This document shows, in pieces, positions 1 to 34,536 of a stretch of 64,000 nucleotides of DNA (positions are counted from its first letter, which is position 1; each line of letters opens with the position of its first letter). The translations under genes and the position numbers were made by a program. Origin of the DNA: an uncultured Candidatus Saccharibacteria bacterium. GTDB lineage: Bacteria; Patescibacteriota; Minisyncoccia; UBA6257; UBA11618. The stretch is taken from contig CAYTBX010000001.1 in the NCBI GenBank assembly GCA_964436175.1, positions 24,306-88,305 on the forward strand, written 5' to 3'. A model generated the notes under the pieces. It searched no databases. It saw nothing but the letters and a program-made list of their open reading frames with translations, and was not told the origin of the DNA.

Positions 1-986
1 ATAAGCCTGCTTTGGGGCGCGGGCATTCCCAAGTGCGCGTAGCCTTCGGGCGTTACCACGCGGCCAGCGGATGTGCGGTGTAAAAACCCGAGCATGATAA
101 GAAACGGCTCGACTACTTCCTCGATATTTTCCGCATTGTCGTTCATTGCGGCCGCCACGGAATTAATACCAACCGGCCCGCCGTTGAATTTTTTAATAAT
201 CAATTCCATGTAGCGCCTATCGAGCAGCTCTAAGCCCAATGGATCAATATCCAACATATCGAACGTCTTTTTTACCACGTCATCCGTAATCGTTTTCGCG
301 CCGTGCACCTCGGCATAGTCGCGCACGCGCTTTAATAATCGGTTTGCCGCACGTGGGGTAAAGCGCGAAGCGAGGGCGACCCGCGCGATTGCCGCATCGT
401 CTAAATTCATTTCCAAAATCCCCGCCGAGCGGCGCACAATCTGCTCGATTGCCGGATTATCGTAATAGTCGAGCTTAAACGAAGCCCCAAAGCGGGACCG
501 TAATGGGCCAGAGATAAGATGTACGCGCGTGGTTGCCGCGATTACCGTAAACGCCGGTAAGTCGAGTGAAACCGTACGTGCGCCCGGCCCCTTGCCGATT
601 ATCAAGTTGAGCTTACGGCTTTCCATGGCGGGATATAAAACTTCTTCAATGTTTTTATTAATACGGTGCGCCTCGTCGATAAATAAAACATCACGCTCTT
701 CGAGGTTGCTAAGCACCGCCGCTAAGTCCCCCATCTTTTCGAGCGCGGGGCCGGACGTAACCTTTAGCCCGCACCCGAGTTCGTTCGTTACGAGGTGTGC
801 CAAAGTAGTCTTTCCTAAGCCAGCCTGCCCGTAAAAAAGAAGATGATCACACGCCTCGTTGCGGGCCTTAGCAGCCGCCAAAATGACGCGTAGATTCTCT
901 TTAATCTTGTCTTGGCCGACGTAATCACCCCACCCAGAGGGACGGAGGGCGGAGTCAACGGTAAGATGCTCTTTTTGGTTATCCAC
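1..986 (-). CDS. ruvB: Holliday junction branch-migration helicase RuvB; the 3' end runs off the window edge and the start is probably the GTG near 986
   Basis: My own minus-strand translation gives ...LRPSGWGDYVGQDKIKENL...HLLFYGQAGLGKTTLAHLVTNELG (Walker A) and ...VLFIDEAHRINK..., matching the RuvB AAA+ core. It is absent from the ORF track because the frame is open to the window edge. Confidence 0.85.
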   Translation of the reverse strand, partial: MDNQKEHLTVDSALRPSGWGDYVGQDKIKENLRVILAAAKARNEACDHLLFYGQAGLGKTTLAHLVTNELGCGLKVTSGPALEKMGDLAAVLSNLEERDVLFIDEAHRINKNIEEVLYPAMESRKLNLIIGKGPGARTVSLDLPAFTVIAATTRVHLISGPLRSRFGASFKLDYYDNPAIEQIVRRSAGILEMNLDDAAIARVALASRFTPRAANRLLKRVRDYAEVHGAKTITDDVVKKTFDMLDIDPLGLELLDRRYMELIIKKFNGGPVGINSVAAAMNDNAENIEEVVEPFLIMLGFLHRTSAGRVVTPEGYAHLGMPAPQSRL

Positions 987-994
987 GGTGGTGC

Positions 995-1024
995 TTGACA
1001 AATTGAAATTGGGTATGCTATACT
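995..1024 (+). promoter_or_regulatory. Near-consensus sigma70-type promoter TTGACA-N18-(TGc)TATACT, reading rightward into a non-coding region
   Basis: ttgaca at 995-1000 and tatact at 1019-1024 with a TG extended -10. No plus-strand ORF lies downstream. Confidence 0.5.
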
Positions 1025-1044
1025 GTTGGCTGTTCACCCTTGAG

Positions 1045-1218
1045 AATAGTGATCTGCGGGCGACCCAGACGCAAGTCTGGAAAGAACAATTTTTAGTATA
1101 CGGATGGTCTGGCTCCGGCTGGATCTCTCCTCGAAATCGTTCTAACCTTTTTCCCTCGTGAAAAAGATTTCTATAGTTCTCGGCTCAACGAGACAACGCC
1201 CGCAGATCACTATTTTTT
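1045..1218 (+). ncRNA. Candidate structured small RNA of about 175 nt whose 5' and 3' ends form a perfect 18-bp stem followed by a U-run; a 6S- or Y-like RNA is one possibility
   Basis: aatagtgatctgcgggcg (1045-1062) is the exact reverse complement of cgcccgcagatcactatt (1197-1214), which is followed by tttt. Internal hairpins include ccagac-GCAA-gtctgg (1065-1080, a GNRA loop), a nested gaaatc/tttttc..gaaaaa/gatttc hairpin (1133-1171) and tctcg-gctcaa-cgaga (1178-1193). It lies directly downstream of the promoter at 995-1024. Confidence 0.35.
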
Positions 1219-1231
1219 CGTTATAGTTTTC

Positions 1232-2635
1232 TTAGAAAGCAATTAACCCCGTCGCAGCCTCGATTTCGGCTACCGTCGTTATACCATGGAGGGCTTTTAT
1301 AATGCCATCCTGTTGCATTGTAACCATACCGCGTGCGACAGCGAAGGCGTATAAATCCCCCGCACCCGTACCGGCGGCTATTATTTTTTCCGCATCTGCA
1401 TTTACGGGAAAGAGCTCGAAGATAGCGATGCGGCCGCGATAACCCGCGCCGTCACATGCCGTGCACCCCACCGGGTCGCATAGCCCCTCAGCCGAAAGCC
1501 CTTCGCGGGAAACCCGCGCGGGAAGCAATGTTAAATAGTTTTTTATTTTTTCCACAAGCCCCGCGTCCACACCTGCGGGCTTTTTGCATTTTTCGCACAG
1601 TCGCCGTACCAAGCGCTGGCCCATTATAAGGTTAATAGCCGGACCGATAGTCTCTTTTTGCACACCCATGTCGCTTAGACGCGGTATTGCGCCCGCCGCG
1701 TCGTTGGCGTGTACCGTAGAAAAAACTTGGTGACCCGTAAGCGCGGCCTGCATGCCGATGCCAGCCGTTTCCGCATCGCGGATTTCGCCCACAAGGATAA
1801 TATCCGGATCCTGCCGCACGATGGCGCGGAGCCCCGTCGCGAAGGAATACCCCTTATCCTCGTCCACCTGCGTCTGCTCGATACCCGCGACCGCGTATTC
1901 TATGGGGTCTTCAATAGTGACGACCTTATTGCCCGGCTGCGCGACCTTCTTAAGGAACGAGTAGAGCGTCGTCGTCTTACCTGAGCCCGTAGGACCGGTG
2001 TTTAAGATCATGCCGTTCGGGACGCTGAGCTCACGCATGACGATAGCGAAGTCGTCTTGCCGCAACCCTAAGGAACCGATATCCGTTTGGAGCGCCGCAG
2101 GGTCTAAGAGACGCATAACAAGCGTTTCGCCGTACTGCGCAGGGACGGAAGAAACGCGCACTTCAATCTGGGCGTTTTCGGTGCGTACCGAGAACCGCCC
2201 ATCCTGCGGCTTGTCCGCATTCAGCTTCATGCGGGAAAGAAGCTTGATACGCGACGAAAGCATTTTGTAGTACGACAACGGCACCGAACCCGCATCGTTC
2301 ATTATGCCGTCGATGCGCAAGCGCATAAGAACCGAAGCTTCCTGCGGCTCCATGTGGATGTCCGAGGCGCGCAAGCGCACACCTGCGAGCAGAAGTAATT
2401 CCATAAACGAGGCGATGAGGCCGTTTTCGAAATCGAACGATGCGAAAGCGGCCTTCACGTCCGCAAATGTCGCCATGCTCGGCGCGAGTTCCTGCTCGCG
2501 TTCCGGTGAAACGCTTATCACACCCGCAACTTCTGCCTGTGGAGCCGATGCCGCACGGCGCTCGGCCTCGCGCTTCTCACCGCGCTCCTCGTGCTCGCGC
2601 GCAAGCCGCGCCAACTGTTCGTCTATAAGGGACAT
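1232..2635 (-). CDS. pilB: PilB/GspE-family secretion/pilus assembly ATPase
   Basis: 467 aa with Walker A LNTGPTGSGKTTTLYSFL, and typical GspE motifs including a C-terminal Cys tetrad (CEKC...CTAC). Confidence 0.85.
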   Translation of the reverse strand: MSLIDEQLARLAREHEERGEKREAERRAASAPQAEVAGVISVSPEREQELAPSMATFADVKAAFASFDFENGLIASFMELLLLAGVRLRASDIHMEPQEASVLMRLRIDGIMNDAGSVPLSYYKMLSSRIKLLSRMKLNADKPQDGRFSVRTENAQIEVRVSSVPAQYGETLVMRLLDPAALQTDIGSLGLRQDDFAIVMRELSVPNGMILNTGPTGSGKTTTLYSFLKKVAQPGNKVVTIEDPIEYAVAGIEQTQVDEDKGYSFATGLRAIVRQDPDIILVGEIRDAETAGIGMQAALTGHQVFSTVHANDAAGAIPRLSDMGVQKETIGPAINLIMGQRLVRRLCEKCKKPAGVDAGLVEKIKNYLTLLPARVSREGLSAEGLCDPVGCTACDGAGYRGRIAIFELFPVNADAEKIIAAGTGAGDLYAFAVARGMVTMQQDGIIKALHGITTVAEIEAATGLIAF

Positions 2636-3245: not shown

Positions 3246-3739
3246 TGCCTAGCGCCTCCGTCCGCATCCTCGGCATCGACCCTGGTAGTTCGCGCATCGG
3301 TTTCGGCCTGATAGAAAAAAAGGGATCAGTACTCTCCCTTATTAAAACCGGAGTTGTCGAAATCCCCAAAGGCGAGGCGGCGGAAAAATTGAACGCGCTC
3401 GCAACCGAATTCAAAAAACTTATTGCGGAATCCAAGCCCGATGCTATCGGCATCGAAAAGCTATTTTTCTCTAAGAACGTGAAAACAGGCATCGAAGTAG
3501 CGCAAGCACGCGGACTCTTATTACATCTTTCAAGTGCGTGCGCGCCCGTTTACGAATTCACTCCCCAGCAGGTGAAAGTCGCGACGACGAATTACGGCGG
3601 TGCGGATAAAAAAGCGGTAGCGCGAATGGTCGCGATGATCCTTAACGTGCCCCCGCTCCGTATCCTCGACGACGCGACGGACGCGCTCGCTATAGCTATA
3701 GCCGCTGCAGGGATGCACCGCATAGATAAAACTTCTTGA
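3245..3739 (+). CDS. ruvC: Holliday junction resolvase RuvC
   Basis: ILGIDPGSSRIGFGLIE ... DATDALAIAIAAAG. Its start overlaps the yebC stop. Confidence 0.9.
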   Translation: MPSASVRILGIDPGSSRIGFGLIEKKGSVLSLIKTGVVEIPKGEAAEKLNALATEFKKLIAESKPDAIGIEKLFFSKNVKTGIEVAQARGLLLHLSSACAPVYEFTPQQVKVATTNYGGADKKAVARMVAMILNVPPLRILDDATDALAIAIAAAGMHRIDKTS

Positions 3740-3763
3740 CACTACAGAGTACTCGTATATACT
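3736..3763 (+). promoter_or_regulatory. sigma70-like promoter TTGACA-N16-TATACT for the small acidic ORF; the -35 element overlaps the ruvC stop
   Basis: ttgaca at 3736-3741 and tatact at 3758-3763. Confidence 0.4.
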
Positions 3764-3795
3764 TCCCCCAAAAGGTCGTTATAGAGCGTTATTTT

Positions 3796-3984
3796 ATGGA
3801 ATTTATTACTGGAATTACTACCCCTGTCTGCCCTACCGAATACTTCGTGAACGTGGACGGACTTGATGACGTTGACGGCCTCGAAGACGATTTGGAAAAC
3901 GACGATGATCTCGACGAAGCGGACGATGATCTCGACGAGACCGACGACGACGAGGATGATGATGACGACGAAGAGGAAATATAG
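3796..3984 (+). CDS. Small (62 aa) extremely acidic protein with its own promoter and terminator
   Basis: MEFITGITTPVCPTEYFVNVDGLDDVDGLEDDLENDDDLDEADDDLDETDDDEDDDDDEEEI. The C-terminal 40 aa are almost entirely D and E. Confidence 0.5.
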   Translation: MEFITGITTPVCPTEYFVNVDGLDDVDGLEDDLENDDDLDEADDDLDETDDDEDDDDDEEEI

Positions 3985-6465: not shown

Positions 6466-7578
6466 TCAGACCCTGATCGGCATCACGATATAGAGGAACG
6501 AAGAATCGTCCGCAGGCCTAATCATCGCCGGACGGTTACTGCCGTTCAGTTTTAAGACAACGGACTCCCCCTGCATCGACTTCAAGCCATCTAAAAGATA
6601 CCGCCAGTTAAAGGGAATATCCGCTATCTGCGTACCCGTAACGCGCGCAGGGATGAGGTATTTGTTTTCGCCGAGGAATTGGTTAACCGAATGGACGGTA
6701 ACCGTCTTCCCCTCCGCATCGGTTGAAAGGCGCACGTCGTTCGTTTTACCGCTAAAATTACTTACTAATTTTACGGCGTTCATAAGGTGTGCGCGGTCGA
6801 GCGAGACCTCCGTCTCAGCGTCTTTCGGGATGATTTGTTCGTAATCGGGATACGTGCCGTCGATAAGGCGCGACATCACCTCCACGTCGTCGGATTTAAA
6901 GAGCATCTGGTTGCCGTCACAATGCACCAGGAGGGGCGCGGTGCGCGATATAACCCGTAAGAGCTCCTGCGCAGTACGGAGCGGCACTATGGCCCGAAAT
7001 CCGGCCTCGAACGTATGCTTGAATTTATTTCCGTCGACGATCTTCTCCGCTAAGCGGAAACTGTCGGTGGCGACGAGCTTTAATACCGTCATCTGGAAGT
7101 CGAACAGCACGCCGCTGATTTCCGGACGAATATCCGAGATATGCGCCGCGCTTATTACCTGCTGTAAGGCATCTTGAAAAACGACAGGATCTATTTCCAT
7201 ATATGCGCCCCCATCCGCCATGCGCGGAATAAGGGGGAAATCCTCGGCTGCCGCCCCCTGCATCTTCGCCTCGTAATTATCGGTCTTCACAACGAAGCTG
7301 GACCCCTCGCTTTCGAGATTAATGCGGTCGTGCGCCGTATTATTTACGATGCTGTAAAAAGTAGCGAATGGGACGGATAAGGCCCCCTCTTCCGTGATCT
7401 TCCCCGATATGAGCTTCGTTATAGCGAGCTCGAGGTTTGTGGTTGTAAGTTGGATCTTCGTACCTACCGTACGCACGAGTACGTTTTTCAATATCGGTAA
7501 GTTAGACGAATCAGCTACCGCTCGTTCGGCAGCTAACAGTCCGTTTTTTAGGTTGTCACGGAAGAGTATCAGTTTCAT
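6466..7578 (-). CDS. dnaN: DNA polymerase III beta sliding clamp
   Basis: 370 aa with the typical DnaN N-terminus MKLILFRDNLKNGLLAAERAV, located immediately downstream of dnaA. Confidence 0.9.
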   Translation of the reverse strand: MKLILFRDNLKNGLLAAERAVADSSNLPILKNVLVRTVGTKIQLTTTNLELAITKLISGKITEEGALSVPFATFYSIVNNTAHDRINLESEGSSFVVKTDNYEAKMQGAAAEDFPLIPRMADGGAYMEIDPVVFQDALQQVISAAHISDIRPEISGVLFDFQMTVLKLVATDSFRLAEKIVDGNKFKHTFEAGFRAIVPLRTAQELLRVISRTAPLLVHCDGNQMLFKSDDVEVMSRLIDGTYPDYEQIIPKDAETEVSLDRAHLMNAVKLVSNFSGKTNDVRLSTDAEGKTVTVHSVNQFLGENKYLIPARVTGTQIADIPFNWRYLLDGLKSMQGESVVLKLNGSNRPAMIRPADDSSFLYIVMPIRV

Positions 7579-7784: not shown

Positions 7785-9185
7785 TTATACATACGCTTTA
7801 TTCAGCATTTCCCTGATAGAAAGTATTTTTTGGCTAAGCGTCTGGTTGCGCGTCATTTCCTGCGATATTTTCTCGTACGCGTAGAGTACGGTCGTGTGGT
7901 CGCGCTTGCCTAGTTTTTCACCAATAAAGGGGTATGAGAGGTCGAGGATATCGCGCAGGAGATAAATGGCAATCTGGCGGGGCTCCACAACCTGTTGCTT
8001 GCGCGAATGGCTCATAATGTCCGCCGTCGGTACTTCGAAGAAATCCGAAACGGTTTGGATTATGACGTCGGGGTGGATATTTTTCTGCGGGGTCTTTATG
8101 ACTTCGGCGATAATTTGCTCGGCGAGTTTTGGCGTTATGATGAGATTTTTAACCTGCTGGTAAAAAAGTATCCGGTTTAATATTCCTTCGAGCTCGCGGA
8201 ATCCCTTTTTAACTTTATTTACGATTTCGGCGATTACTTCGTCAGATAGCTCGGCCTTTTTCTCCGCGAGCTTGGCACGGAGCACGGCCGCCTTAAGTTC
8301 GAAATCGGGGTAGCCGATATCGACTATCATCCCCCCTTCGAACCGCGAGCGCAGGCGTTCTTCGAGTATAGGGATAAACTTCGGCGAACGGTCCGATGAT
8401 ATGATGATCTGTTTACGCTCTTCGTAGAGTGCGTTGAATGTGTGAAAGAATTCTTCTTCGGTACGCGCCTTACCGGCGATGAACTGAATATCGTCGATGA
8501 TAAGGACGTCGATTGCGCGGTACTTTTCCTTAATCGAATCCATGCGCTTATTCTTCATCGCCCAGATGACATCGTTTGTGAATTTTTCTGACGTCACGTA
8601 CCGTGCGCGGACTTTGCTGTGGTAGAGCTTTACCACTTCGTTGCCTAAGGCCTGCATTAAGTGGGTTTTACCCACACCAACACCGCCATATATAAAGAGC
8701 GGATTGTATTTAGTACCTATTTCTTTAATGATTCCCGTCGCCGCGGCATACGCCATTTCGTTGGACGACCCCACGATGAAGGAATTAAGCGTGTGGTGCG
8801 GATTAAGGTTGGTGTTCGGGTCGATAATGAGCTCGTTGAACGCCAGCTGCGAAGAAGAGTCGGTGTACGGCCGGTCACCGCTCGCTTTTTTTGCGCCGTG
8901 AGCGAGCTTCGCGGAATCTTTCGTAAGAATATATTCTACTTTGCGTATACCACTGTCGATTGTACGGAGCGTACCGAAGATCGTGTTGTGATATTTATTT
9001 TCTACCCACTCGCGGGCGAAATTATTCGGCAGTCCGACGGTAACCGTGCCGTCTTTTTTTTCCAGAATAGAACTATTCTTAAACCACGTTATGAAATTAG
9101 GTCGCGATATTTGCAACTCGACTTCGCCGAGTACTTTCTGCCAAAGCTCGTTGCAATCCATGGTACTCATTGTAGAGTCGGGCAC
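7785..9185 (-). CDS. dnaA: Chromosomal replication initiator DnaA
   Basis: GGVGVGKTHLMQALGNE (Walker A), IDDIQFIAGK, and a C-terminal DNA-binding helix region KRDHTTVLYAYEKI. Confidence 0.95.
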   Translation of the reverse strand: MPDSTMSTMDCNELWQKVLGEVELQISRPNFITWFKNSSILEKKDGTVTVGLPNNFAREWVENKYHNTIFGTLRTIDSGIRKVEYILTKDSAKLAHGAKKASGDRPYTDSSSQLAFNELIIDPNTNLNPHHTLNSFIVGSSNEMAYAAATGIIKEIGTKYNPLFIYGGVGVGKTHLMQALGNEVVKLYHSKVRARYVTSEKFTNDVIWAMKNKRMDSIKEKYRAIDVLIIDDIQFIAGKARTEEEFFHTFNALYEERKQIIISSDRSPKFIPILEERLRSRFEGGMIVDIGYPDFELKAAVLRAKLAEKKAELSDEVIAEIVNKVKKGFRELEGILNRILFYQQVKNLIITPKLAEQIIAEVIKTPQKNIHPDVIIQTVSDFFEVPTADIMSHSRKQQVVEPRQIAIYLLRDILDLSYPFIGEKLGKRDHTTVLYAYEKISQEMTRNQTLSQKILSIREMLNKAYV

Positions 9186-9408: not shown

Positions 9409-9712
9409 GAAGAACCGCCTGCCGGTGCAGGAGGCGCTTTTGCGCCACGGCCGCACGGTGCGCAAGCCCGCGTTTACGGTAAAAATCTTTAAGGCTTGTT
9501 TCCCCTACGCTCGTTTCGGCATAGTCGTCGGGCGGCGTGTTGCGAAGTCTGCCGTGGGCAGGAATAAAATCCGCCGCATGGCGTTTACGGCGGTGCAGCA
9601 AGCTATGGCCGCGTGGCCGGTTGCCGATTATCTCGTAATTGCGCATCCGGCGGCTGCGGCATACGAAGCTAAACAATGGCATGACGAACTTATTCCATCT
9701 TCTCTTAATTGA
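9398..9712 (+). CDS. rnpA: RNase P protein component
   Basis: 104 aa basic protein in the canonical rpmH-rnpA-yidC order; its start overlaps the rpmH stop. Confidence 0.8.
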   Translation: MLAKKNRLPVQEALLRHGRTVRKPAFTVKIFKACFPYARFGIVVGRRVAKSAVGRNKIRRMAFTAVQQAMAAWPVADYLVIAHPAAAAYEAKQWHDELIPSSLN

Positions 9713-10331
9713 TCCGCTCCTCGCGCTGCTGCTTTTTTTGCACGCGAACGTGACGTTCGGCGACCTCGGGTCCGCGATTATTTTACTTACCGTTATCGTG
9801 CGCTTGGTGCTCTACCCCCTCTTCTATAAGAGTCTTAAACAGCAGCACGTCTTAAAAAGGATCCAGCCGCATATTCAAGACATTCAGACGAAGTATAAAG
9901 GTAATCGCGAAGAGCAGGGTAAAGCCTTGATGGCGCTCTATAAGGAACATGGCGTAAACCCCTTGATGAGTCTTGGGCTTATCTTCGTCCAGTTGCCGAT
10001 ATTGATCGCCCTCTACCAAGTTTTTCTTATGCCTCTACCGGAGCTTTCGCAATCGTTTTTAGGATTGATAACGCTCGACGAGCGGAGTATCCTTTTGGTT
10101 GTCATTGCGGCGCTTCTGCAGTATTTACTGGGCGTAATGAGTATGGCTGGCAATAAGGACGATAAAAGTCCCGCGGCGCAGACGGCGCGCAATATGGTGA
10201 TGATCGGGCCCGTTATCACCGTCGCGGTCTTATGGTCGCTCCCTGCCGCTATCGGCATCTACTGGGTAACGACGACGCTTTTCTCGATAGCTCAGCAGCT
10301 GCACGTGGAACGGCGTTTTCCTAAATCCTGA
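9681..10331 (+). CDS. yidC: Membrane protein insertase YidC/Oxa1, short monoderm-type (an alternative start at 9639 is possible)
   Basis: LYPLFYKSLKQQHVLKRIQPHIQDIQTKYKG...ALMALYKEHGVNPLMSLGLIFVQLPILIALY. Confidence 0.85.
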   Translation: MTNLFHLLLIDPLLALLLFLHANVTFGDLGSAIILLTVIVRLVLYPLFYKSLKQQHVLKRIQPHIQDIQTKYKGNREEQGKALMALYKEHGVNPLMSLGLIFVQLPILIALYQVFLMPLPELSQSFLGLITLDERSILLVVIAALLQYLLGVMSMAGNKDDKSPAAQTARNMVMIGPVITVAVLWSLPAAIGIYWVTTTLFSIAQQLHVERRFPKS

Positions 10332-10838: not shown

Positions 10839-11044
10839 ATTCATGCAGTGCTTAGTAAGCCGGCGCGCACGTGCTTTTCGGAAACATGCTCTTTTTCTCC
10901 TGCGGAAAAAAGGCATTCGCTCTCACCCTAATAAATTCGCTAAAAGGCGAATTACCCTGAGCTATTAGGGCTCCGAGATGTTCCTCAAAACACGTCCACG
11001 CCGTCTTTCCCGAATGTCGATATTTTTCCAAAATTAAAAAAAAA

Positions 11045-23835: not shown

Positions 23836-24255
23836 GTGGATAACTGGTCATGCGAGCGCCCCAGCCGTAATCTTTTCTCGTCGGACCGTAAGCACTGCGG
23901 CAACCCGCTGCACCGCATGCAAATGCAACCTCTATCGTCGTCTAAGGCGACAGTAAAAATCGAACTCGCCCTCCGCGCGAAGCGCTGCGGAACTCACACA
24001 GCGATTTTTACTCGCCTTATTCCGCCTCTTTCGGGCATTTGCTATGCGTCTCCGCTTAGGTTGCCTTAGTGCTCACGGTCCGCCTCGTAACGCCCTAAAA
24101 AGCCTCATTTTACTAGCTTTTCAGCCGCTATGCTTGACATTTTGATAAATAAGGTGGTATTATAATATCGTGCAGTAGAGACAGTTCTTCACATGGTTTT
24201 CGGCTTAATTGCCGACCCGCTCCCACGGGTTACTCGGGAAAAAAGGAACCTTGCT
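23836..24255 (+). repeat. Copy A of a ~400-bp diverged direct repeat, a bidirectional regulatory module
   Basis: Aligns with 31515-31919 in the same orientation with short indels. It has a conserved block 1 (23836-24075) and block 2 (24131-24255), the latter comprising a promoter plus a ~85-nt leader ending in an AAGGAA SD. Confidence 0.7.
24134..24166 (+). promoter_or_regulatory. Promoter TTGACA-N18-TATTAT(aat) inside repeat copy A
   Basis: ttgaca at 24134-24139 and tattat at 24158-24163, overlapping tataat at 24161-24166. Confidence 0.5.
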
Positions 24256-28378: not shown

Positions 28379-28721
28379 TAGGCTTGAATCTATATTTATG
28401 ACACACGACGATTCTAAAAAATACGAAGCTATTTTGCTTGAGTTGCAGGCTACTTTATCGAAAGAGATAAAAGACGTAATACGCGGCGGTAACGATATGG
28501 GTGAGATGGGTAACCGCGACGAGGAGGCAGACGAGACGGAAGAATCGGGAATCGCCCATGCTGAGCAGATTGCGCTGAAGGGGCGGCTGCATGCAGTGCT
28601 CGACGCCTTAGAGCGAATAAAGGTGGGAACGTATGGTACATGTCTTAAGTGTCATGCGGTAATCGGCCACGATGTGCTCGACGCCGCGCCAGAGTCCTTA
28701 TATTGTGCGGAGTGTAAATAA
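28356..28721 (+). CDS. DksA/TraR-family C4 zinc-finger protein
   Basis: C-terminal GTYGTCLKCHAVIGHDVLDAAPESLYCAECK (a CxxC-x17-CxxC arrangement) preceded by a coiled-coil region. Confidence 0.6.
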   Translation: MRSARMRDRLESIFMTHDDSKKYEAILLELQATLSKEIKDVIRGGNDMGEMGNRDEEADETEESGIAHAEQIALKGRLHAVLDALERIKVGTYGTCLKCHAVIGHDVLDAAPESLYCAECK

Positions 28722-30259
28722 TGAACGCGCGCTTTTCCCGTGTGTATTCGGGAGAACTTGCAGGTATTGATGCGCGGTGCGTGGAGGTGGAGGTCGACTT
28801 ACATGTCGGCCTCCATTCTTTTTCCATAGTCGGTTTGGCGGATAAGGCCTTGAGTGAGGCGCGTGAGCGCGTGGGTGCGGCTATTAAGAATAGCGGTGCG
28901 AAGCCCCCGTCGCAGGAGAACCGGAAGATCGTCGTAAATTTGGCGCCGGCGGATGTTAAGAAAACCGGATCCCAATACGACCTCGCAATCGCCATAGGCT
29001 ATTTAGTGGCAACGGAACAGGTGGGGAAATTTGAAACTAAAGATAAGGTTTTTTTGGGCGAGCTTGCGCTCGACGGTGGGGTGCGTGCTGTTACGGGTGT
29101 TTTGAACGTTGCATGCATGGCACGCGATAAGGGGTTTAAGGAACTTTACGTGCCGGCCGCGAATGCAGAGGAGGCGGCGCTTGCGCATGGTATCGCAGTA
29201 TTTCCCGTACGCACTCTTACGGAACTTATGGCGCACCTCGAGGGCCGCGCGCGTATATCCCCCGCAACCCACTCCGTAGATTTTTCTGCACCTGTTGTAA
29301 GCGTGGATATTGCGGACGTGCGCGGGCAGGCTTCTGCAAAACGCGCTTTGCTTATCGCCGCGTGCGGCGGCCACCATATTTTAATGAGCGGCTCCCCGGG
29401 TAGTGGGAAGACCATGCTCGCGCAAGCGTTTGCCGGGCTCTTGCCCGCGCTCACGCACGCGGAGGCGGTGGAGGTGACGCGTATTTATTCTGCCTCCGGC
29501 GCATTAGCCGGTAGGCATGCCGTAACCGAACGGCCGTTCCGTGCCCCGCACCATACGGCGTCCGCCGCTGCGGTGGTTGGTGGTGGCTCCCATCCCCGCC
29601 CTGGCGAGATTAGCTTGGCCCATAAGGGCGTGCTTTTTCTCGACGAGTTGCCGGAGTTCCGGCGCGATGTTTTGGAATCCCTACGCGAGCCGCTCGAAGG
29701 CGGGCGGGTGACTATCGCGCGCTCGACAGGTTCCTTAACGCTCCCCGCCCGCTTTATCCTCGTTGCCGCTATGAACCCGTGCCCGTGCGGTTATTACGGC
29801 GATACGCGTAAGGACTGCGCGTGCGGCGCGCATGAGATAGCGCGATACAAAAAGAAAGTTTCAGGGCCGATACTCGACCGTATCGACCTGCAAGTGCAGG
29901 TGCCGCATATAGAGCTTGCGGACTTGTCCCGCGCGCCTGTCTCACAAAGCCCAAGGGCTAGCGTGGGAGGAGATACGAAGAGTATGCGCGAAACCGTCAC
30001 GCGCGTACGTGCCGCGCAAACGGCGCGGCAGGGTGTATTGAATGGCGCACTTTCCTCTAAAAACGTTTCTGAGGGCGTCACGCTCGATGCGCTTGCGCAG
30101 GCGTTTTTCGCGAAGGTGTGGAAAAGCGCCACGCTCTCCGCGCGCGGGTATTACCGCCTGCTCAAAGTCGCGCGCACGATAGCGGATATAGAAAGCGCCC
30201 CGTCCGTTTCCGAAGCCCACGTCGCCGAAGCCTTTGCTTACCGTCTTCGTGAAAAGTAG
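28721..30259 (+). CDS. comM: ComM/YifB Mg-chelatase-like AAA+ protein
   Basis: Lon-like N-terminus IVVNLAPADVKKTGSQYDLAIAIGYL, Walker A ILMSGSPGSGKTMLA, Walker B VLFLDELPEF. Confidence 0.9.
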   Translation: MNARFSRVYSGELAGIDARCVEVEVDLHVGLHSFSIVGLADKALSEARERVGAAIKNSGAKPPSQENRKIVVNLAPADVKKTGSQYDLAIAIGYLVATEQVGKFETKDKVFLGELALDGGVRAVTGVLNVACMARDKGFKELYVPAANAEEAALAHGIAVFPVRTLTELMAHLEGRARISPATHSVDFSAPVVSVDIADVRGQASAKRALLIAACGGHHILMSGSPGSGKTMLAQAFAGLLPALTHAEAVEVTRIYSASGALAGRHAVTERPFRAPHHTASAAAVVGGGSHPRPGEISLAHKGVLFLDELPEFRRDVLESLREPLEGGRVTIARSTGSLTLPARFILVAAMNPCPCGYYGDTRKDCACGAHEIARYKKKVSGPILDRIDLQVQVPHIELADLSRAPVSQSPRASVGGDTKSMRETVTRVRAAQTARQGVLNGALSSKNVSEGVTLDALAQAFFAKVWKSATLSARGYYRLLKVARTIADIESAPSVSEAHVAEAFAYRLREK

Positions 30260-30260
30260 C

Positions 30261-30357
30261 GTGAGTGGGTAGTGAGTAGTGGGTAGTTTAAAAAACCGGC
30301 AAAAGCCGGTTTTTTAACGTCGTCGTTTCTACTCACTAACCACTACCCACTACTCAC
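30261..30357. repeat. Compound inverted repeat (about 97 nt) built from short GTGAGT/GGGTAGT-type units, enclosing a terminator core
   Basis: gtgagtagtgggtag (30272-30286) is the exact reverse complement of ctacccactactcac (30343-30357); the outer arms extend imperfectly. Confidence 0.6.
30291..30315. terminator. Perfect bidirectional terminator core
   Basis: aaaaaa-ccggc-aaaa-gccgg-tttttt. Confidence 0.7.
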
Positions 30358-30361
30358 TCGA

Positions 30362-31510
30362 TTACAATTTCAGTAGATCGAGAGCCTTCACTAATCCGTT
30401 ATTGGAAGTATTAATGATGACGTAGTCGCCGAAGATGCCGTAGCTGAAGAGCGCTCCGTCGGTTGCAAGCGAAACGAAGCGGTCGATGTATTTGTCGCGC
30501 GCTTGGCCGGTGCGGAACGTTGCGGGGGCACCAGGGTCAGCGAGAAAGAGGTTTTTGTAGGAGCTCGTCTCGACGGCTTGCAAACGGCTGGCGAGAGTCG
30601 CTGCGTCTATTTGTGAGGCAGGGTTAATTTTGGCTATATAGCCGGGCCATGCGCCGCGGTCGTCGTAAAAGAGATACGCGGAAAAGACGGGGTCGAATGC
30701 GGCGGTGAGTATTCCGTCTAAGCCGTTCGTCTTCGCTTCCGGCATAAGGGCTTCCATTACGGTAGCGAAGCTCATTGGCGCACCAGCGTTAAGTATCGAG
30801 ACTTCCGTAAGTGTGCCGCTTGCGGATTTCGTTTTTGCCGCCTCAGCTGCAAGCGCTGCAGTGATGGAGGTTGCAGTGCCATCGGTTTCAATCTTTAGTA
30901 AGCTCGCTTGCGCTCCCCCGAGCGGGGTTATCGCGGGCGCTACGGGTGTGGGTGGTGTTACTGGCGCGACGAGGCCTGCGGAGCTTGGCTCAGGTGTTAC
31001 AGCTTCTGCCGCTGCTTCTTGTACGGGCTCACTCGGCATCATGGCGCGGTATGCGGGTAGGCCGTATTTGTACGTTACCCAGCCAATGCCGACCACGAGG
31101 ATAAGCATAAAGAGCCAGAGTAAAAGCCTGCCGGATTTCATTTCGCGCACGTCGGGCATGGGCGCAGGGGCCGGCGCTGTTTGCACGGGGAACTGTACGG
31201 GTGCGGCTATGGGTGCGGATTGCACTGGTTGCGGTGGCGTTGCCATCGGCGGCGGTGGCGTAATCGGTTGCGCTACGGCTTCGCCCGTGGCTTGCATGGA
31301 GCGTATATCGCTTTCCATGGTGCGCACCATAACTTCCGGCGTAGTCGGCGGCGGCGGTACGGTGTTCGACTGGGGCGCTGCCTGCGCCTGCCCCTCGAAG
31401 CCCGAAGGGCGAAGTGGGGGCATTGGCACGCTCGGCGGTACGCTATTGTTCTGCGGCAATGTTGCGGGGTTTAATTCATCCATAGTTTTTAAAAGTATAG
31501 CATTATGCAT
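30362..31510 (-). CDS. Bitopic membrane protein with a Pro-rich cytoplasmic N-terminal region
   Basis: 382 aa with a P/Q/A-rich first ~130 aa, a single TM segment (LLLWLFMLILVVGIGWV), then an extracytoplasmic domain. It is transcribed divergently from repeat copy B. Confidence 0.55.
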   Translation of the reverse strand: MHNAILLKTMDELNPATLPQNNSVPPSVPMPPLRPSGFEGQAQAAPQSNTVPPPPTTPEVMVRTMESDIRSMQATGEAVAQPITPPPPMATPPQPVQSAPIAAPVQFPVQTAPAPAPMPDVREMKSGRLLLWLFMLILVVGIGWVTYKYGLPAYRAMMPSEPVQEAAAEAVTPEPSSAGLVAPVTPPTPVAPAITPLGGAQASLLKIETDGTATSITAALAAEAAKTKSASGTLTEVSILNAGAPMSFATVMEALMPEAKTNGLDGILTAAFDPVFSAYLFYDDRGAWPGYIAKINPASQIDAATLASRLQAVETSSYKNLFLADPGAPATFRTGQARDKYIDRFVSLATDGALFSYGIFGDYVIINTSNNGLVKALDLLKL

Positions 31511-31514
31511 GGCT

Positions 31515-31919
31515 GTGGATAACTAAATTGCTCGCAAACCCTTCGTGCCGCGGCAACCCGTTGCGGCGTATGCAAATCCGGCCTCTCTCGTCGTAAAAGC
31601 CGACAGAAAAAATAGAACTCGCCCTTGTCCGCCTGCGGGCGGACTGCGGAACTCAAACAACAATTTTTTCTCGGCTTTTATCTCCTCCTTCGGGGATTTG
31701 CTATCCGCCTCCACTCAGGTTGCCTTAGCACGAAGGGCTTGCTTCACCCCATCCAAAACTTTCAAAAAAAGCTTTATTTAAAGGCATTTCAGTGCATTTA
31801 CTTGACAAAGTAGTACTTAGGGTGGTATTATAATAACGTGCAGTTGAGACAGTTCTTCACATGGTTTTCGGCTTTTGCCGACCCGCTCCCACGGGCTACT
31901 CTGGAAAAAGGAATGTAAG
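31515..31919 (+). repeat. Copy B of the ~400-bp diverged direct repeat, a bidirectional regulatory module
   Basis: Block 1 at 31515-31745 and block 2 at 31800-31919 match copy A; see the main finding. Confidence 0.7.
31802..31834 (+). promoter_or_regulatory. Promoter TTGACA-N18-TATTAT(aat) inside repeat copy B
   Basis: ttgaca at 31802-31807 and tattat at 31826-31831. Confidence 0.5.
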
Positions 31920-32183
31920 ATGAATCTCCAAGAAGTGCTTGCGTTTCTCGTTCAGTGCGTTGCCTCCAAAACGAACATTGATGTTACTCTCAGTAATGAC
32001 AAGGTGTTCTCGGGTCTGTATTTAGGACGAGATGAGATTGGACTTGTCATAATTCACCGCAATGACAACCTGTCGAAGCTCTTATTTGCGGACATTAGAG
32101 CTTTGACCATTTCACGTCCGCTGCCGCGAGTCGAAAAGCGCGTCCGAAGTTTTTGTATCTTACCTTTTTCGAATAGTTTCTGA
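31920..32183 (+). CDS. Small protein (87 aa) with a possible Sm-like/Hfq-like fold; a tentative call
   Basis: N-terminal helix LQEVLAFLVQCVASK followed by a beta-rich segment NIDVTLSNDKVFSGLYLGRDEIGLVIIHRNDNLSKLLFADIRALTIS (compare Hfq [25 protein letters not shown]). A conserved leader and SD lie upstream. Confidence 0.35.
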   Translation: MNLQEVLAFLVQCVASKTNIDVTLSNDKVFSGLYLGRDEIGLVIIHRNDNLSKLLFADIRALTISRPLPRVEKRVRSFCILPFSNSF

Positions 32184-32275: not shown

Positions 32276-32481
32276 AAAATTATGACACGCAAAAAAAGCC
32301 GGCGTGGATATGCTTATCGGGAACATCTCGGAGGCGGCGTAGCTCTGGGCACCGCCTTTTTAGGCGGTTGCGCCGCTGAGAGCGAGGGAAGTTTTTTCGC
32401 AGGAAAAAAACTATCCCGTTTCCCGAGAAGTATATGCGCGCCGGCTTTTAAATATCCCCTACGGATAATCCGTAACGCTTT

Positions 32482-34536
32482 TTATAATCCCTTTAAACTC
32501 AACCCCACTTTGCCGTCTTCGAGGCGGATTATCTTCGCCTGTACCACGTCGCCTAAGTGGACGACTTCTTCCACGCTCTTTACGTAGCCGTTCTTGAGCT
32601 CTGAGACATGGATCATGCCGCTCCTGCCGTTGCCCCATTCGACGATCGCGCCGAATTCCAAAATGCGTTCAACCGTACCTTCGATGATATCCCCTACCTT
32701 ATACTCGTGGGCAATGTCGTCTACGCAGTTCTTGGCCGCGAGCGCGGAATCTTTATCGTGCGCGTAGATGAAGACGTCGCCCGTCTGGCGGATATCCATA
32801 TTGATAATACCCGTGGCCTCGATAATGCCTTTGATGATTTTACCGCCGGGGCCGATAATGTCGCCAATCTGCTCGGGGTTAATCATGACCTTCATTACGA
32901 CCGGTGCGTATTTCGAAATGTCCGTGCGTGGAGCGGTGATCGCCTTTTCCATCGCCGTCATTATGTGGAGTCGTGCGCGCTTTGCTTGCTCGAGCGTGCG
33001 GCCAATAATTTCGGGCGTTACGCCGTCTACCTTTACGTCCATCTGCACGGCGTTTACGCCGTCTTTAGTACCCGCTACTTTAAAGTCCATGTCGCCGTAG
33101 TGATCTTCCGGCCCTTGGATGTCGGTCAAGATTTTATAAATGCCGTTCTTTTCGTCGCTCATCATGCCCATGGCGATGCCGGCCGCCATTTTCTTAATAG
33201 GTACGCCCGCGTCCATGAGCGCTAAGCAGCCGCCGCAGACGGATGCCATGGAAGACGATCCGTTAGACGACAAAATTTCAGAAACGATACGCACAGTGTA
33301 CGGGAATTCGTCTTGTGTGGGGATTAGCCGCCACAGTGCTTTTTCCGCCAAGTTGCCGTGGCCTATTTCGCGGCGTCCCGGCCCGCGGAAACTCCCCGTC
33401 TCCCCCGTGCAGTACGGCGGGAAGTTGTAGTGGAGCATAAAATTCTTCTCACCTGTAAAGAAGATGTTTTCTACGAGTTGGTTCGTGTCCGGCGGGGCGA
33501 GTGTCACGGTTGCGAGTGCTTGCGTGTTGCCGCGGATGAATAGTGCCGAACCGTGGATGCGCTCCAAGACGCCCACTTCGGCGTGCAAGTCGCGCACTTC
33601 GTCGAGCTTGCGGTGGTCGGGGCGTTTTTCTTCGCCGTCTTTTGCGCCGCAGATATTTTTGTGCACGAGCTCGTCCACGTAGTCTTCGAATACGCGACCG
33701 GCGTCGTTCAAGTCATCCGAAGACGCTTCGGATTCCTTTAAGAAAGTCATCAAGTCTTTTTGGATATGCGACACATTCGCCACGCGGTCTATTTTAGAGA
33801 CGACGTACATTGCAGGCTCCAGCTTATCCGCGAGAAAACCGCGTACTTTTGCCACGAGTTCCGGTGCGGGGGTTTTAAGCAGTACCTCCGCCTTCGGCTT
33901 ACCGATTTGCGCTACGATCGTTTTTTGGAATTCTACGAGCTTCTTGATCTCCGCCATCGCGGCAGTGAAATCGCCGACGATTTCCGCTTCGGGTACGTCG
34001 AGCCCTTCGAGCTCGATCATGTTTATCTTATCTGCCGTGCCTGCGACGAATGCCGTCCAGTTATCTTTTTTAATTTGCACGCCTGCTACCGGCCCGTTCC
34101 ACGGAATGTCAGACATGGCGAGCGCCGCGGAGGCGGCTACGAGTCCCAGCGTTACGGGGCTGGAATCCTCTTCGTACGAAAGTACGGTGATGACTACCTG
34201 TATGTCGCGGCGTACGCGCTGGTCGAAAAGCGGGCGTATCGTGCGGTCGATAATGCGGGCGGAAAGAATCGCGTTTTCGCTCGCTCTCCCCTCGCGGCGC
34301 ATGTAGCGGCCACCGAGTATTTTACCCGCAGCGTAAAAACGCTCCTCGAATTCTACGGAGAGCGGCAAGTAGTCGCGCGGCGAATCTTCACCCGTCATGA
34401 CGGCCGTTGCAAGTACTGTGGTGCCGCCCCATGTGCCGATCACCGCCGCGTTCGCCTGCTCGGCAAGACGCGAGGTTTCGATGACGAGCTTCTTTCCGTC
34501 TATTTCTGTTTCGAATTTCTTCCGGTTCAGATCCAT
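32482..34536 (-). CDS. pnp: Polyribonucleotide nucleotidyltransferase (PNPase)
   Basis: 684 aa with two RNase PH-like domains plus C-terminal KH and S1 domains (IIGPGGKIIKGI; GDIIEGTVERILEFGAIVEW). Confidence 0.95.
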   Translation of the reverse strand: MDLNRKKFETEIDGKKLVIETSRLAEQANAAVIGTWGGTTVLATAVMTGEDSPRDYLPLSVEFEERFYAAGKILGGRYMRREGRASENAILSARIIDRTIRPLFDQRVRRDIQVVITVLSYEEDSSPVTLGLVAASAALAMSDIPWNGPVAGVQIKKDNWTAFVAGTADKINMIELEGLDVPEAEIVGDFTAAMAEIKKLVEFQKTIVAQIGKPKAEVLLKTPAPELVAKVRGFLADKLEPAMYVVSKIDRVANVSHIQKDLMTFLKESEASSDDLNDAGRVFEDYVDELVHKNICGAKDGEEKRPDHRKLDEVRDLHAEVGVLERIHGSALFIRGNTQALATVTLAPPDTNQLVENIFFTGEKNFMLHYNFPPYCTGETGSFRGPGRREIGHGNLAEKALWRLIPTQDEFPYTVRIVSEILSSNGSSSMASVCGGCLALMDAGVPIKKMAAGIAMGMMSDEKNGIYKILTDIQGPEDHYGDMDFKVAGTKDGVNAVQMDVKVDGVTPEIIGRTLEQAKRARLHIMTAMEKAITAPRTDISKYAPVVMKVMINPEQIGDIIGPGGKIIKGIIEATGIINMDIRQTGDVFIYAHDKDSALAAKNCVDDIAHEYKVGDIIEGTVERILEFGAIVEWGNGRSGMIHVSELKNGYVKSVEEVVHLGDVVQAKIIRLEDGKVGLSLKGL

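Follow-up and report, generated by a model that had tools for sequence, protein, structure and literature searches.

A candidate family of structured small RNAs between the pilB and ruvB genes of Patescibacteria

A predicted RNA gene in the ruvB-pilB spacer

The window, i.e., the whole stretch of DNA that was analyzed (64,000 nucleotides), begins with ruvB on the minus strand, which is followed by a spacer and by a gene for a GspE/PilB-family ATPase (hereafter pilB), also on the minus strand. The spacer is filled by a predicted RNA gene on the plus strand. The features of the locus are as follows.

1 to 986, minus strand: 5′ part of ruvB, with a GTG start at 986-984, divergent from the RNA gene
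995 to 1000, plus strand: −35 hexamer TTGACA, near-consensus
1016 to 1024, plus strand: extended −10 element TGcTATACT, after an 18-nt spacer from the −35 hexamer
1031 to 1219, plus strand: RNA gene, predicted transcript of ~189 nt, as inferred from promoter and terminator geometry
1042 to 1062, plus strand: 5′ strand of the closing stem P1, inner 8 bp CUGCGGGC (family consensus CUGNGGGC)
1065 to 1080, plus strand: P1a hairpin CCAGAC-GCAA-GUCUGG, inserted into the 5′ junction in some members only
1083 to 1143, plus strand: P2-P3 arm, the conserved core
1083 to 1096 with 1130 to 1143, plus strand: P2, within the P2-P3 arm
Between P2 and P3, plus strand: internal loop UUAGU, within the P2-P3 arm
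1102 to 1113 with 1118 to 1130, plus strand: P3, within the P2-P3 arm
1114 to 1117, plus strand: UCCG tetraloop capping P3
1140 to 1146, plus strand: UCUAACC, conserved by alignment column and also found in distant relatives
1147 to 1166, plus strand: P4, an A/U-rich hairpin (CUUUUUC ... GAAAAAG)
1178 to 1193, plus strand: P5, a variable hairpin (UCUCG-GCUCAA-CGAGA)
1197 to 1217, plus strand: 3′ strand of P1
1213 to 1218, plus strand: U-tract TTTTTT, the presumed intrinsic termination site
1232 to 2635, minus strand: GspE/PilB-family secretion/pilus ATPase of 467 aa, convergent with the RNA gene

The ATPase has a Pfam T2SSE match (4.5e-108), and its NCBIfam matches to GspE and PilB fall under the equivalog cut-offs. 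A domain search of the 467-aa protein found no N-terminal T2SSE_N domain, and the analysis found no further pilus genes around it within the window's first 7.6 kb and no second T2SSE paralogue anywhere in the window. Farther along lie dnaN (6466-7578, minus strand), dnaA (7785-9185, minus strand), and yidC (9639-10331, plus strand), and the cumulative GC skew of the window has its minimum at ~4 to 6 kb. Together, these features place the probable replication origin close to the dnaN/dnaA/yidC region, roughly 5 to 8 kb away from the RNA gene.

A first-pass annotation of this DNA, made from its letters, had proposed a promoter TTGACA-N18-TGcTATACT at 995-1024. It is indeed present there and reaches a sigma-70 score of 11 out of 12, with a TG dinucleotide before the −10 element; its −35 hexamer is 9 nt from the GTG start of ruvB. 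Transcription would start near position 1031, ~7 nt past the −10 element, and would end at the closing stem and U-tract (~1218), 13 nt before the stop codon of the ATPase gene. The only other promoter in the first 4 kb that scores 11 out of 12 (TTGACA-16-TATACT, 3736-3763, plus strand) overlaps the start of a small ORF (region 3736-3984, plus strand), which encodes a very acidic, Asp/Glu-rich tail made up of tandem 21-nt repeats (3901-3975).

The region had also been described as free of ORFs. In fact, a mechanical 57-aa ORF with a GTG start (988-1161, plus strand) overlaps it, but the substance of the claim stands: we rejected this ORF as coding because its start precedes the predicted transcription start and relatives have non-triplet indels within it. 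No ORF of at least 30 aa was found on the minus strand of the RNA region.

The ends of the RNA form a perfect inverted repeat, as had been noticed: the 18 nucleotides at 1045-1062 (AATAGTGATCTGCGGGCG) are the exact reverse complement of 1197-1214, and with up to three mismatches allowed, 0.09 occurrences of this 18-mer are expected across the window. Once transcribed, the repeat becomes part of a closing stem of 21 bp (1042-1062 paired with 1197-1217). The predicted folding energy of the plus strand at 1031-1220 is −78.3 kcal/mol, compared with −45.5 ± 4.4 kcal/mol for shuffled sequences (z = −7.5), and none of 200 shuffles was as stable; the complementary strand also folds well (z = −5.2). 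Where at least three internal hairpins had been announced, we found four, at 1065-1080, 1083-1143, 1147-1166, and 1178-1193. The first of these is the hairpin with a GNRA loop that had been singled out; it exists, but it is a clade-specific insertion outside the conserved core. As for the UCUAACC sequence, its first four bases end the 3′ strand of P2, AAC lies in the junction, and the last C opens P4.

The run of T residues reported behind the inverted repeat is the TTTTTT at 1213-1218. The 3′ end thus has the elements of an intrinsic terminator, an 18- to 21-bp stem followed by a U-tract, with an unusually large enclosed loop of 134 nt. It is plausible from this arrangement that the closing stem doubles as the terminator.

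Several other non-coding elements of the window were recorded along the way. A second, unrelated ends-paired element occurs in two copies, at 32294-32449 (plus strand; −88.4 kcal/mol, z = −8.5) and at ~10850-10990 (minus strand). The copies are ~78% identical and one inner helix shows compensatory changes (GGCGGCG/CGCCGCU versus GCCCUAA/UUAGGGU); the first lies just past the 3′ end of the PNPase gene (32482-34536, minus strand). This element has no Rfam match and no obvious promoter; it could be one more RNA family awaiting annotation, or a repeat that resembles a terminator. A direct repeat of ~350 nt with 74 to 94% identity (23897-24243 and 31550-31909) covers largely non-coding stretches, and in its second copy a promoter of the consensus type (TTGACA...TATAAT, ~31803-31835) precedes a leader and an ATG at 31921. 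Finally, a 23-nt imperfect inverted repeat at 30264-30351 (AGTGGGTAGTGAGTAGTGGGTAG / CTACTCACTAACCACTACCCACT), located between convergent ORFs (28721-30259, plus strand, and 30362-31510, minus strand), is probably a bidirectional terminator.

Relatives and conserved structure

With the ATPase protein as query, 80 loci were retrieved from genomes of Patescibacteria (CPR), bacteria with very small genomes that cannot yet be grown alone. The closest ATPase relative, with 94% protein identity, comes from a Candidatus Harrisonbacteria metagenome-assembled genome, and the window belongs to a relative of Candidatus Harrisonbacteria. The RNA was detected in 56 of the 80 loci by blastn and iterated nhmmer, and in 59 with a covariance model, which added distant Terrybacteria-like members; on the window, the model matched 1039-1219 of the plus strand (128 bits, E = 7.5e-30). 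Independently of pilB, a degenerate pattern derived from the core matched at least 120 metagenome stretches, and 118 of the 120 matches listed are true family members. Altogether, more than 150 relatives in Patescibacteria carry the RNA. As far as sampled, the family appears confined to Patescibacteria of the Paceibacteria/Parcubacteria type. Many of the related loci (L005, L009, L013, and others) come from records titled "uncultured Candidatus Saccharibacteria" or "Gammaproteobacteria"; their gene content and the RNA match Parcubacteria-type genomes, and these titles therefore look unreliable.

The relatives were first aligned without reference to the model. MAFFT and RNAalifold, applied to 51 sequences, gave 42 consensus pairs, 30 of which show compensatory double changes; the stem is conserved and its changes are heavily compensatory, which answers the RNAalifold check that the first-pass annotation had called for. 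A larger alignment of 92 sequences (88 distinct) was fitted to the model, so that its pair counts lean toward the structure; in the distinct sequences, 95.6% of 3,529 pair cells are standard pairs, compared with 76.7 ± 0.4% after shuffling of partners, a level that none of 500 shuffles reached. Pairing drops to 41 to 53% when partners are slid by one to three columns. Both sides have changed in 35 of the 42 pairs, and P1 alone has such changes in 20 of its 21 pairs. The independent 51-sequence result agrees with the model-fitted alignment.

The alignment also tells the strands apart. G-U cells (417) far outnumber A-C cells (65), and the other strand would pair in only 85.6% of cells, indicating that the plus strand of the window is the RNA. 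On the same counts we rejected an RNA on the opposite strand, be it a ruvB leader or a pilB 3′ UTR.

Conservation is unevenly spread over the fold. The outer 13 bp of the ~21-bp P1 vary, whereas the inner 8 bp (CUGNGGGC/GCCCNCAG) are nearly invariant. The 5′ strand of the junction is only 1 to 2 nt long in 58 of 84 members; a hairpin of some kind is inserted there in 8 of the 84 distinct members, the remainder having 1 to 7 nt. The GCAA hairpin P1a is found only in the window and in L001, L002, and L003, with compensatory changes among them. The P2-P3 arm is the most conserved block of sequence and has a constant length (57 to 64 nt in 84 members), with the consensus GGAAU/AUUCU, an internal loop UUAG(A), GGA/UCC, a 5-bp covarying helix, and a UNNG tetraloop closed by a G-C pair; the junction consensus is UCUAAC. 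The 3′ domain contains at least one hairpin in every member, one in 43 and two in 41 of 84. P5 is present in 41 of 84 and absent from a short form of 127 to 135 nt, total length in the family ranging from 127 to 181 nt.

Two other readings of conserved segments were considered and set aside. The AUUCUAA segment could in principle be a −10 box (TAGAAT) for ruvB on the minus strand; yet the final base, a C in the window, covaries with the base opposite it in P2, and pairing within the RNA explains the segment better. A pseudoknot between UUAG of the internal loop and CUAA of the junction would pair in ~45 to 82% of sequences per position, clashes with two P2 pairs, and shows no consistent covariation.

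More distant pilB-ruvB spacers (L056, L062, L069, L059, L061, and L058) also contain a promoter followed by an ends-paired structure, with a different inner P1 sequence. Both the GGAYG...UGG / CYAUCCU arm and the UCUAAC junction are recognizable in L059/L061 and L062. The L062 spacer (L062:1927-2477) is 551 nt long and, by minimum-free-energy folding, holds two consecutive ends-paired elements, the first a divergent family member with an insertion in P3 and the second unrelated.

The promoter is conserved together with the fold. Using a score of at least 10 out of 13 at most 120 nt upstream of the RNA as the criterion, we found promoters (consensus TTGACA/TGnTAnnAT) in 117 of 126 distinct members, 94 of them with the TG extension. 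The same search detected promoters in 4 of 126 reverse complements, 4 of 126 shuffled sequences, and none of 126 downstream 120-nt regions. At the 3′ end, the closing stem is followed by a U-tract in 75 of 120 members and a separate hairpin-plus-U terminator occurs within 100 nt downstream in 11 others, making 86 of 120; by these crude criteria, the remaining 34 have no obvious terminator.

Because the promoter is conserved and the pairing is strand specific, we infer that the RNA is expressed. The locus has what is generally expected of a stand-alone structured small RNA, i.e., a promoter, a defined 3′ end, covariation, and no coding potential, with transcription predicted. Judged from these sequence features, 1031-1219 is very probably a real, independently transcribed structured small RNA gene of a new family. 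The original proposal of a promoter-driven, ends-paired small RNA is thereby borne out by more than 150 relatives, covariation, strand-specific G-U pairs, and the conserved promoter.

The same data bear on the idea that the inverted repeat acts at the DNA level, as a miniature inverted-repeat transposable element (MITE), or is just an elaborate bidirectional terminator. The perfect 18-nt repeat with its A-rich 5′ flank and 3′ T-run has the look of such an element, and another ends-paired element does exist in the window. However, the sequence is present in a single copy in the 64-kb window, where the check for additional copies gave none, and once per locus in 200 loci, at a fixed syntenic position, and a search of 2.9 million viral contigs gave no match; the conserved promoter, the strand-asymmetric G-U pairs, and the conserved internal loops would be superfluous for a terminator. 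This explanation is largely refuted.

Conserved neighborhood and proposed function

Retention of the promoter, the invariant helix, and the constant-length arm throughout the class indicates that the RNA likely does something important. Our proposal is a stable RNA that binds protein and works in trans within a ribonucleoprotein. Its recognition surface would consist of the helix of invariant sequence together with the junction and the loop of P3; the periphery would tolerate inserted hairpins, and the closing stem would protect both RNA ends in addition to terminating transcription. Protein binding is favored because a perfect, invariant helix sits at the junction, the loops are conserved, the arm has a constant length, and the periphery accepts insertions, a pattern that is typical of a protein-recognition surface of a stable RNA and not of a base-pairing or switching RNA. 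A stand-alone structured non-coding RNA gene outside the Rfam families, with a trans-acting, protein-binding mode, is the reading that we favor, with moderate confidence.

The location of the RNA had been said to give no functional hint; yet no contextual feature of the family is better conserved than its position beside pilB and ruvB. In the pilB loci, the ATPase stop codon is always followed directly by the RNA gene, which runs on the other strand, and in ~58 of them ruvB comes next. In the set collected independently of pilB, a convergent ATPase gene is found within 400 nt in 66 of 80 cases and a divergent ruvB within 500 nt in 59 of 92. When all members are counted, the convergent ATPase ORF is present in 97 of 102; its stop codon lies a median of 15 nt from the end of the RNA, and the two overlap in 12. 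The linkage with the ATPase is thus more persistent than that with ruvB, which is replaced by a membrane protein gene and yebC in ~20 short-form loci; pilB is missing next to the RNA in L087 and L107. The ORF downstream of the RNA in L107 resembles dnaA by its N-terminal sequence, a putative assignment.

This arrangement is the basis of the main rival explanation, in which the RNA is encoded in cis to the pilB-ruvB unit and acts on it by an antisense mechanism or by transcription interference. The RNA, or its transcription, would then adjust the expression of pilB and ruvB or uncouple the two genes, by way of a duplex sensitive to RNase III, occlusion of a promoter, or collision of polymerases. 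The RNA fills the whole spacer, so that a pilB 3′ UTR or read-through from pilB to ruvB would be perfectly complementary to it, and the tail-to-tail arrangement recurs in both sets of loci. The −35 hexamer of a strong promoter (995) almost touches the start of ruvB (986), and the stable fold of the complementary strand is a further point in its favor. An antisense RNA, however, would not need near-invariant helices and loops or a constant-length arm, features that are maintained though the flanking proteins are only 40 to 55% identical across the lineages of the family. Moreover, the family outlasts the loss of either neighbor in the loci mentioned above, and its G-U pairing reflects selection on the plus-strand fold itself. 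We therefore consider the antisense explanation unlikely.

A special case of the protein-binding model pairs the RNA with the neighboring hexameric ATPase of the GspE/PilB type, which is truncated at its N terminus. The RNA would be a cofactor, obligatory subunit, or regulator of this ATPase, and the two genes would be neighbors in the manner of Y RNA and rsr or of ssrA and smpB. Such a partnership would explain why the tail-to-tail spacing of ~15 nt is kept across the class and why linkage is stronger with the ATPase than with ruvB; it would also suit an ATPase that lacks the usual N-terminal domain, has no pilus genes as neighbors in the first 7.6 kb, and has no second T2SSE paralogue within the window. 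Yet no ATPase of the GspE family is known to use an RNA, compact CPR genomes generally keep their gene order, a 15-nt gap allows little rearrangement, and some members have no ATPase gene nearby. This partnership is improbable in our estimation.

If it were true, the RNA would be the first known RNA component of that motor family, and as a subunit it would imply that CPR bacteria have a motor for secretion, pili, or DNA uptake that contains RNA; pilus- and secretion-type motors are thought to be important for host attachment and DNA uptake in these bacteria. Whatever its partner, the RNA offers a specific candidate for a new ribonucleoprotein of these bacteria and a marker for the pilB-ruvB locus, and its covariance model is ready for annotating CPR genomes.

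Comparison with known RNAs

The first-pass annotation had matched the RNA to no specific family, and an Rfam scan now agrees, with nothing above noise. None of the 4,227 models of Rfam 15 matched the window RNA at the gathering score in a scan of the whole window, and only tRNAs passed the gathering thresholds in 15 related loci. Relaxing the cut-off to E ≤ 10 for the window and L005 loci returned only noise, e.g., snoU61, Srn266, and microRNA precursors. ARAGORN found nothing tRNA-like at the locus. RNase P, 5S, and tmRNA were ruled out by architecture and motifs and by the absence of model matches. The literature searched contains no description of the family, no account of non-coding RNAs of CPR bacteria, and none of 6S RNA in these bacteria.

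Candidates from better-known classes were dismissed on structural grounds. Domain IV of SRP RNA (4.5S/ffs) is marked by a GNAR tetraloop with a conserved AGCA-type symmetric loop; the family has an apical UNNG loop, no GGAA/AGCA motif in the alignment, and no Rfam match to SRP RNA. A riboswitch or other cis-regulatory leader was rejected since the next downstream gene is convergent and the 21-bp P1 was judged too stable to switch. Resemblance to the L11/L10-binding region of 23S rRNA is superficial (GGAUG..UUGGCU), and the loops differ.

The likeness to 6S and Y RNAs that had been suggested from the paired ends does not hold up: the family matches no Rfam model, and both a central bubble and a Ro-type helix are missing. 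A highly divergent 6S-type RNA binding the RNA polymerase holoenzyme nevertheless deserves to be weighed. With 6S RNA (ssrS, RF00013, and relatives), the family shares a size in the range of 130 to 190 nt, paired ends, a strong sigma-70 promoter of the housekeeping type, and synteny conserved within the lineage at the level of the phylum; GC-rich pairs flank its junction, and the literature searched reports no 6S RNA for these bacteria. But the Rfam 6S covariance models found no match, either at the gathering score or at E ≤ 10, and the family has a multi-helix junction in place of the large central bubble. With a 5′ junction strand of 1 to 2 nt in most members, there is no single-stranded template strand; P2, which would have to be open, is backed by covariation; and the closing stem is a perfect helix in which the usual internal loops are missing. 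A 6S-type RNA is thus very improbable.

Y RNAs and YrlA, the partners of Rsr (Ro60), likewise have a long stem formed from both ends and an RNA gene beside a protein gene, and the family RNA, like them, may be part of a ribonucleoprotein. It differs in having no tRNA-like module, no Rfam match, and no bulged Ro-binding helix, its inner P1 helix being a perfect 8-bp duplex; at the locus, the adjacent genes are the T2SSE ATPase gene and ruvB, not rsr.

The pRNA of phage phi29 bridges the portal and the packaging ATPase gp16. It resembles the family in being a structured RNA of ~120 to 170 nt whose ends pair into a helix and which has a multi-way junction, the link with a ring ATPase consisting here in gene adjacency. 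It is phage encoded and oligomerizes by loop-loop pairing; no intermolecular loop complementarity was found in the family RNA. The likeness is an analogy only. A phage origin of the family was rejected after its conserved core motif gave no match in 2.9 million viral contigs.

The closest counterparts are the orphan, lineage-specific structured small RNAs of Rfam, such as the Bacteroidales-1, Chloroflexi-1, and Acido-Lenti-1 motifs. The family differs from these motifs in sequence and architecture, in having no Rfam model match, and in its genome-reduced CPR hosts, and the evidence does not justify claiming a categorically new mechanism. It shares with them an own promoter and terminator, strong covariation, restriction to a single lineage, and a conserved neighborhood. 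By these features, the RNA would best be placed as a new family within this known class.
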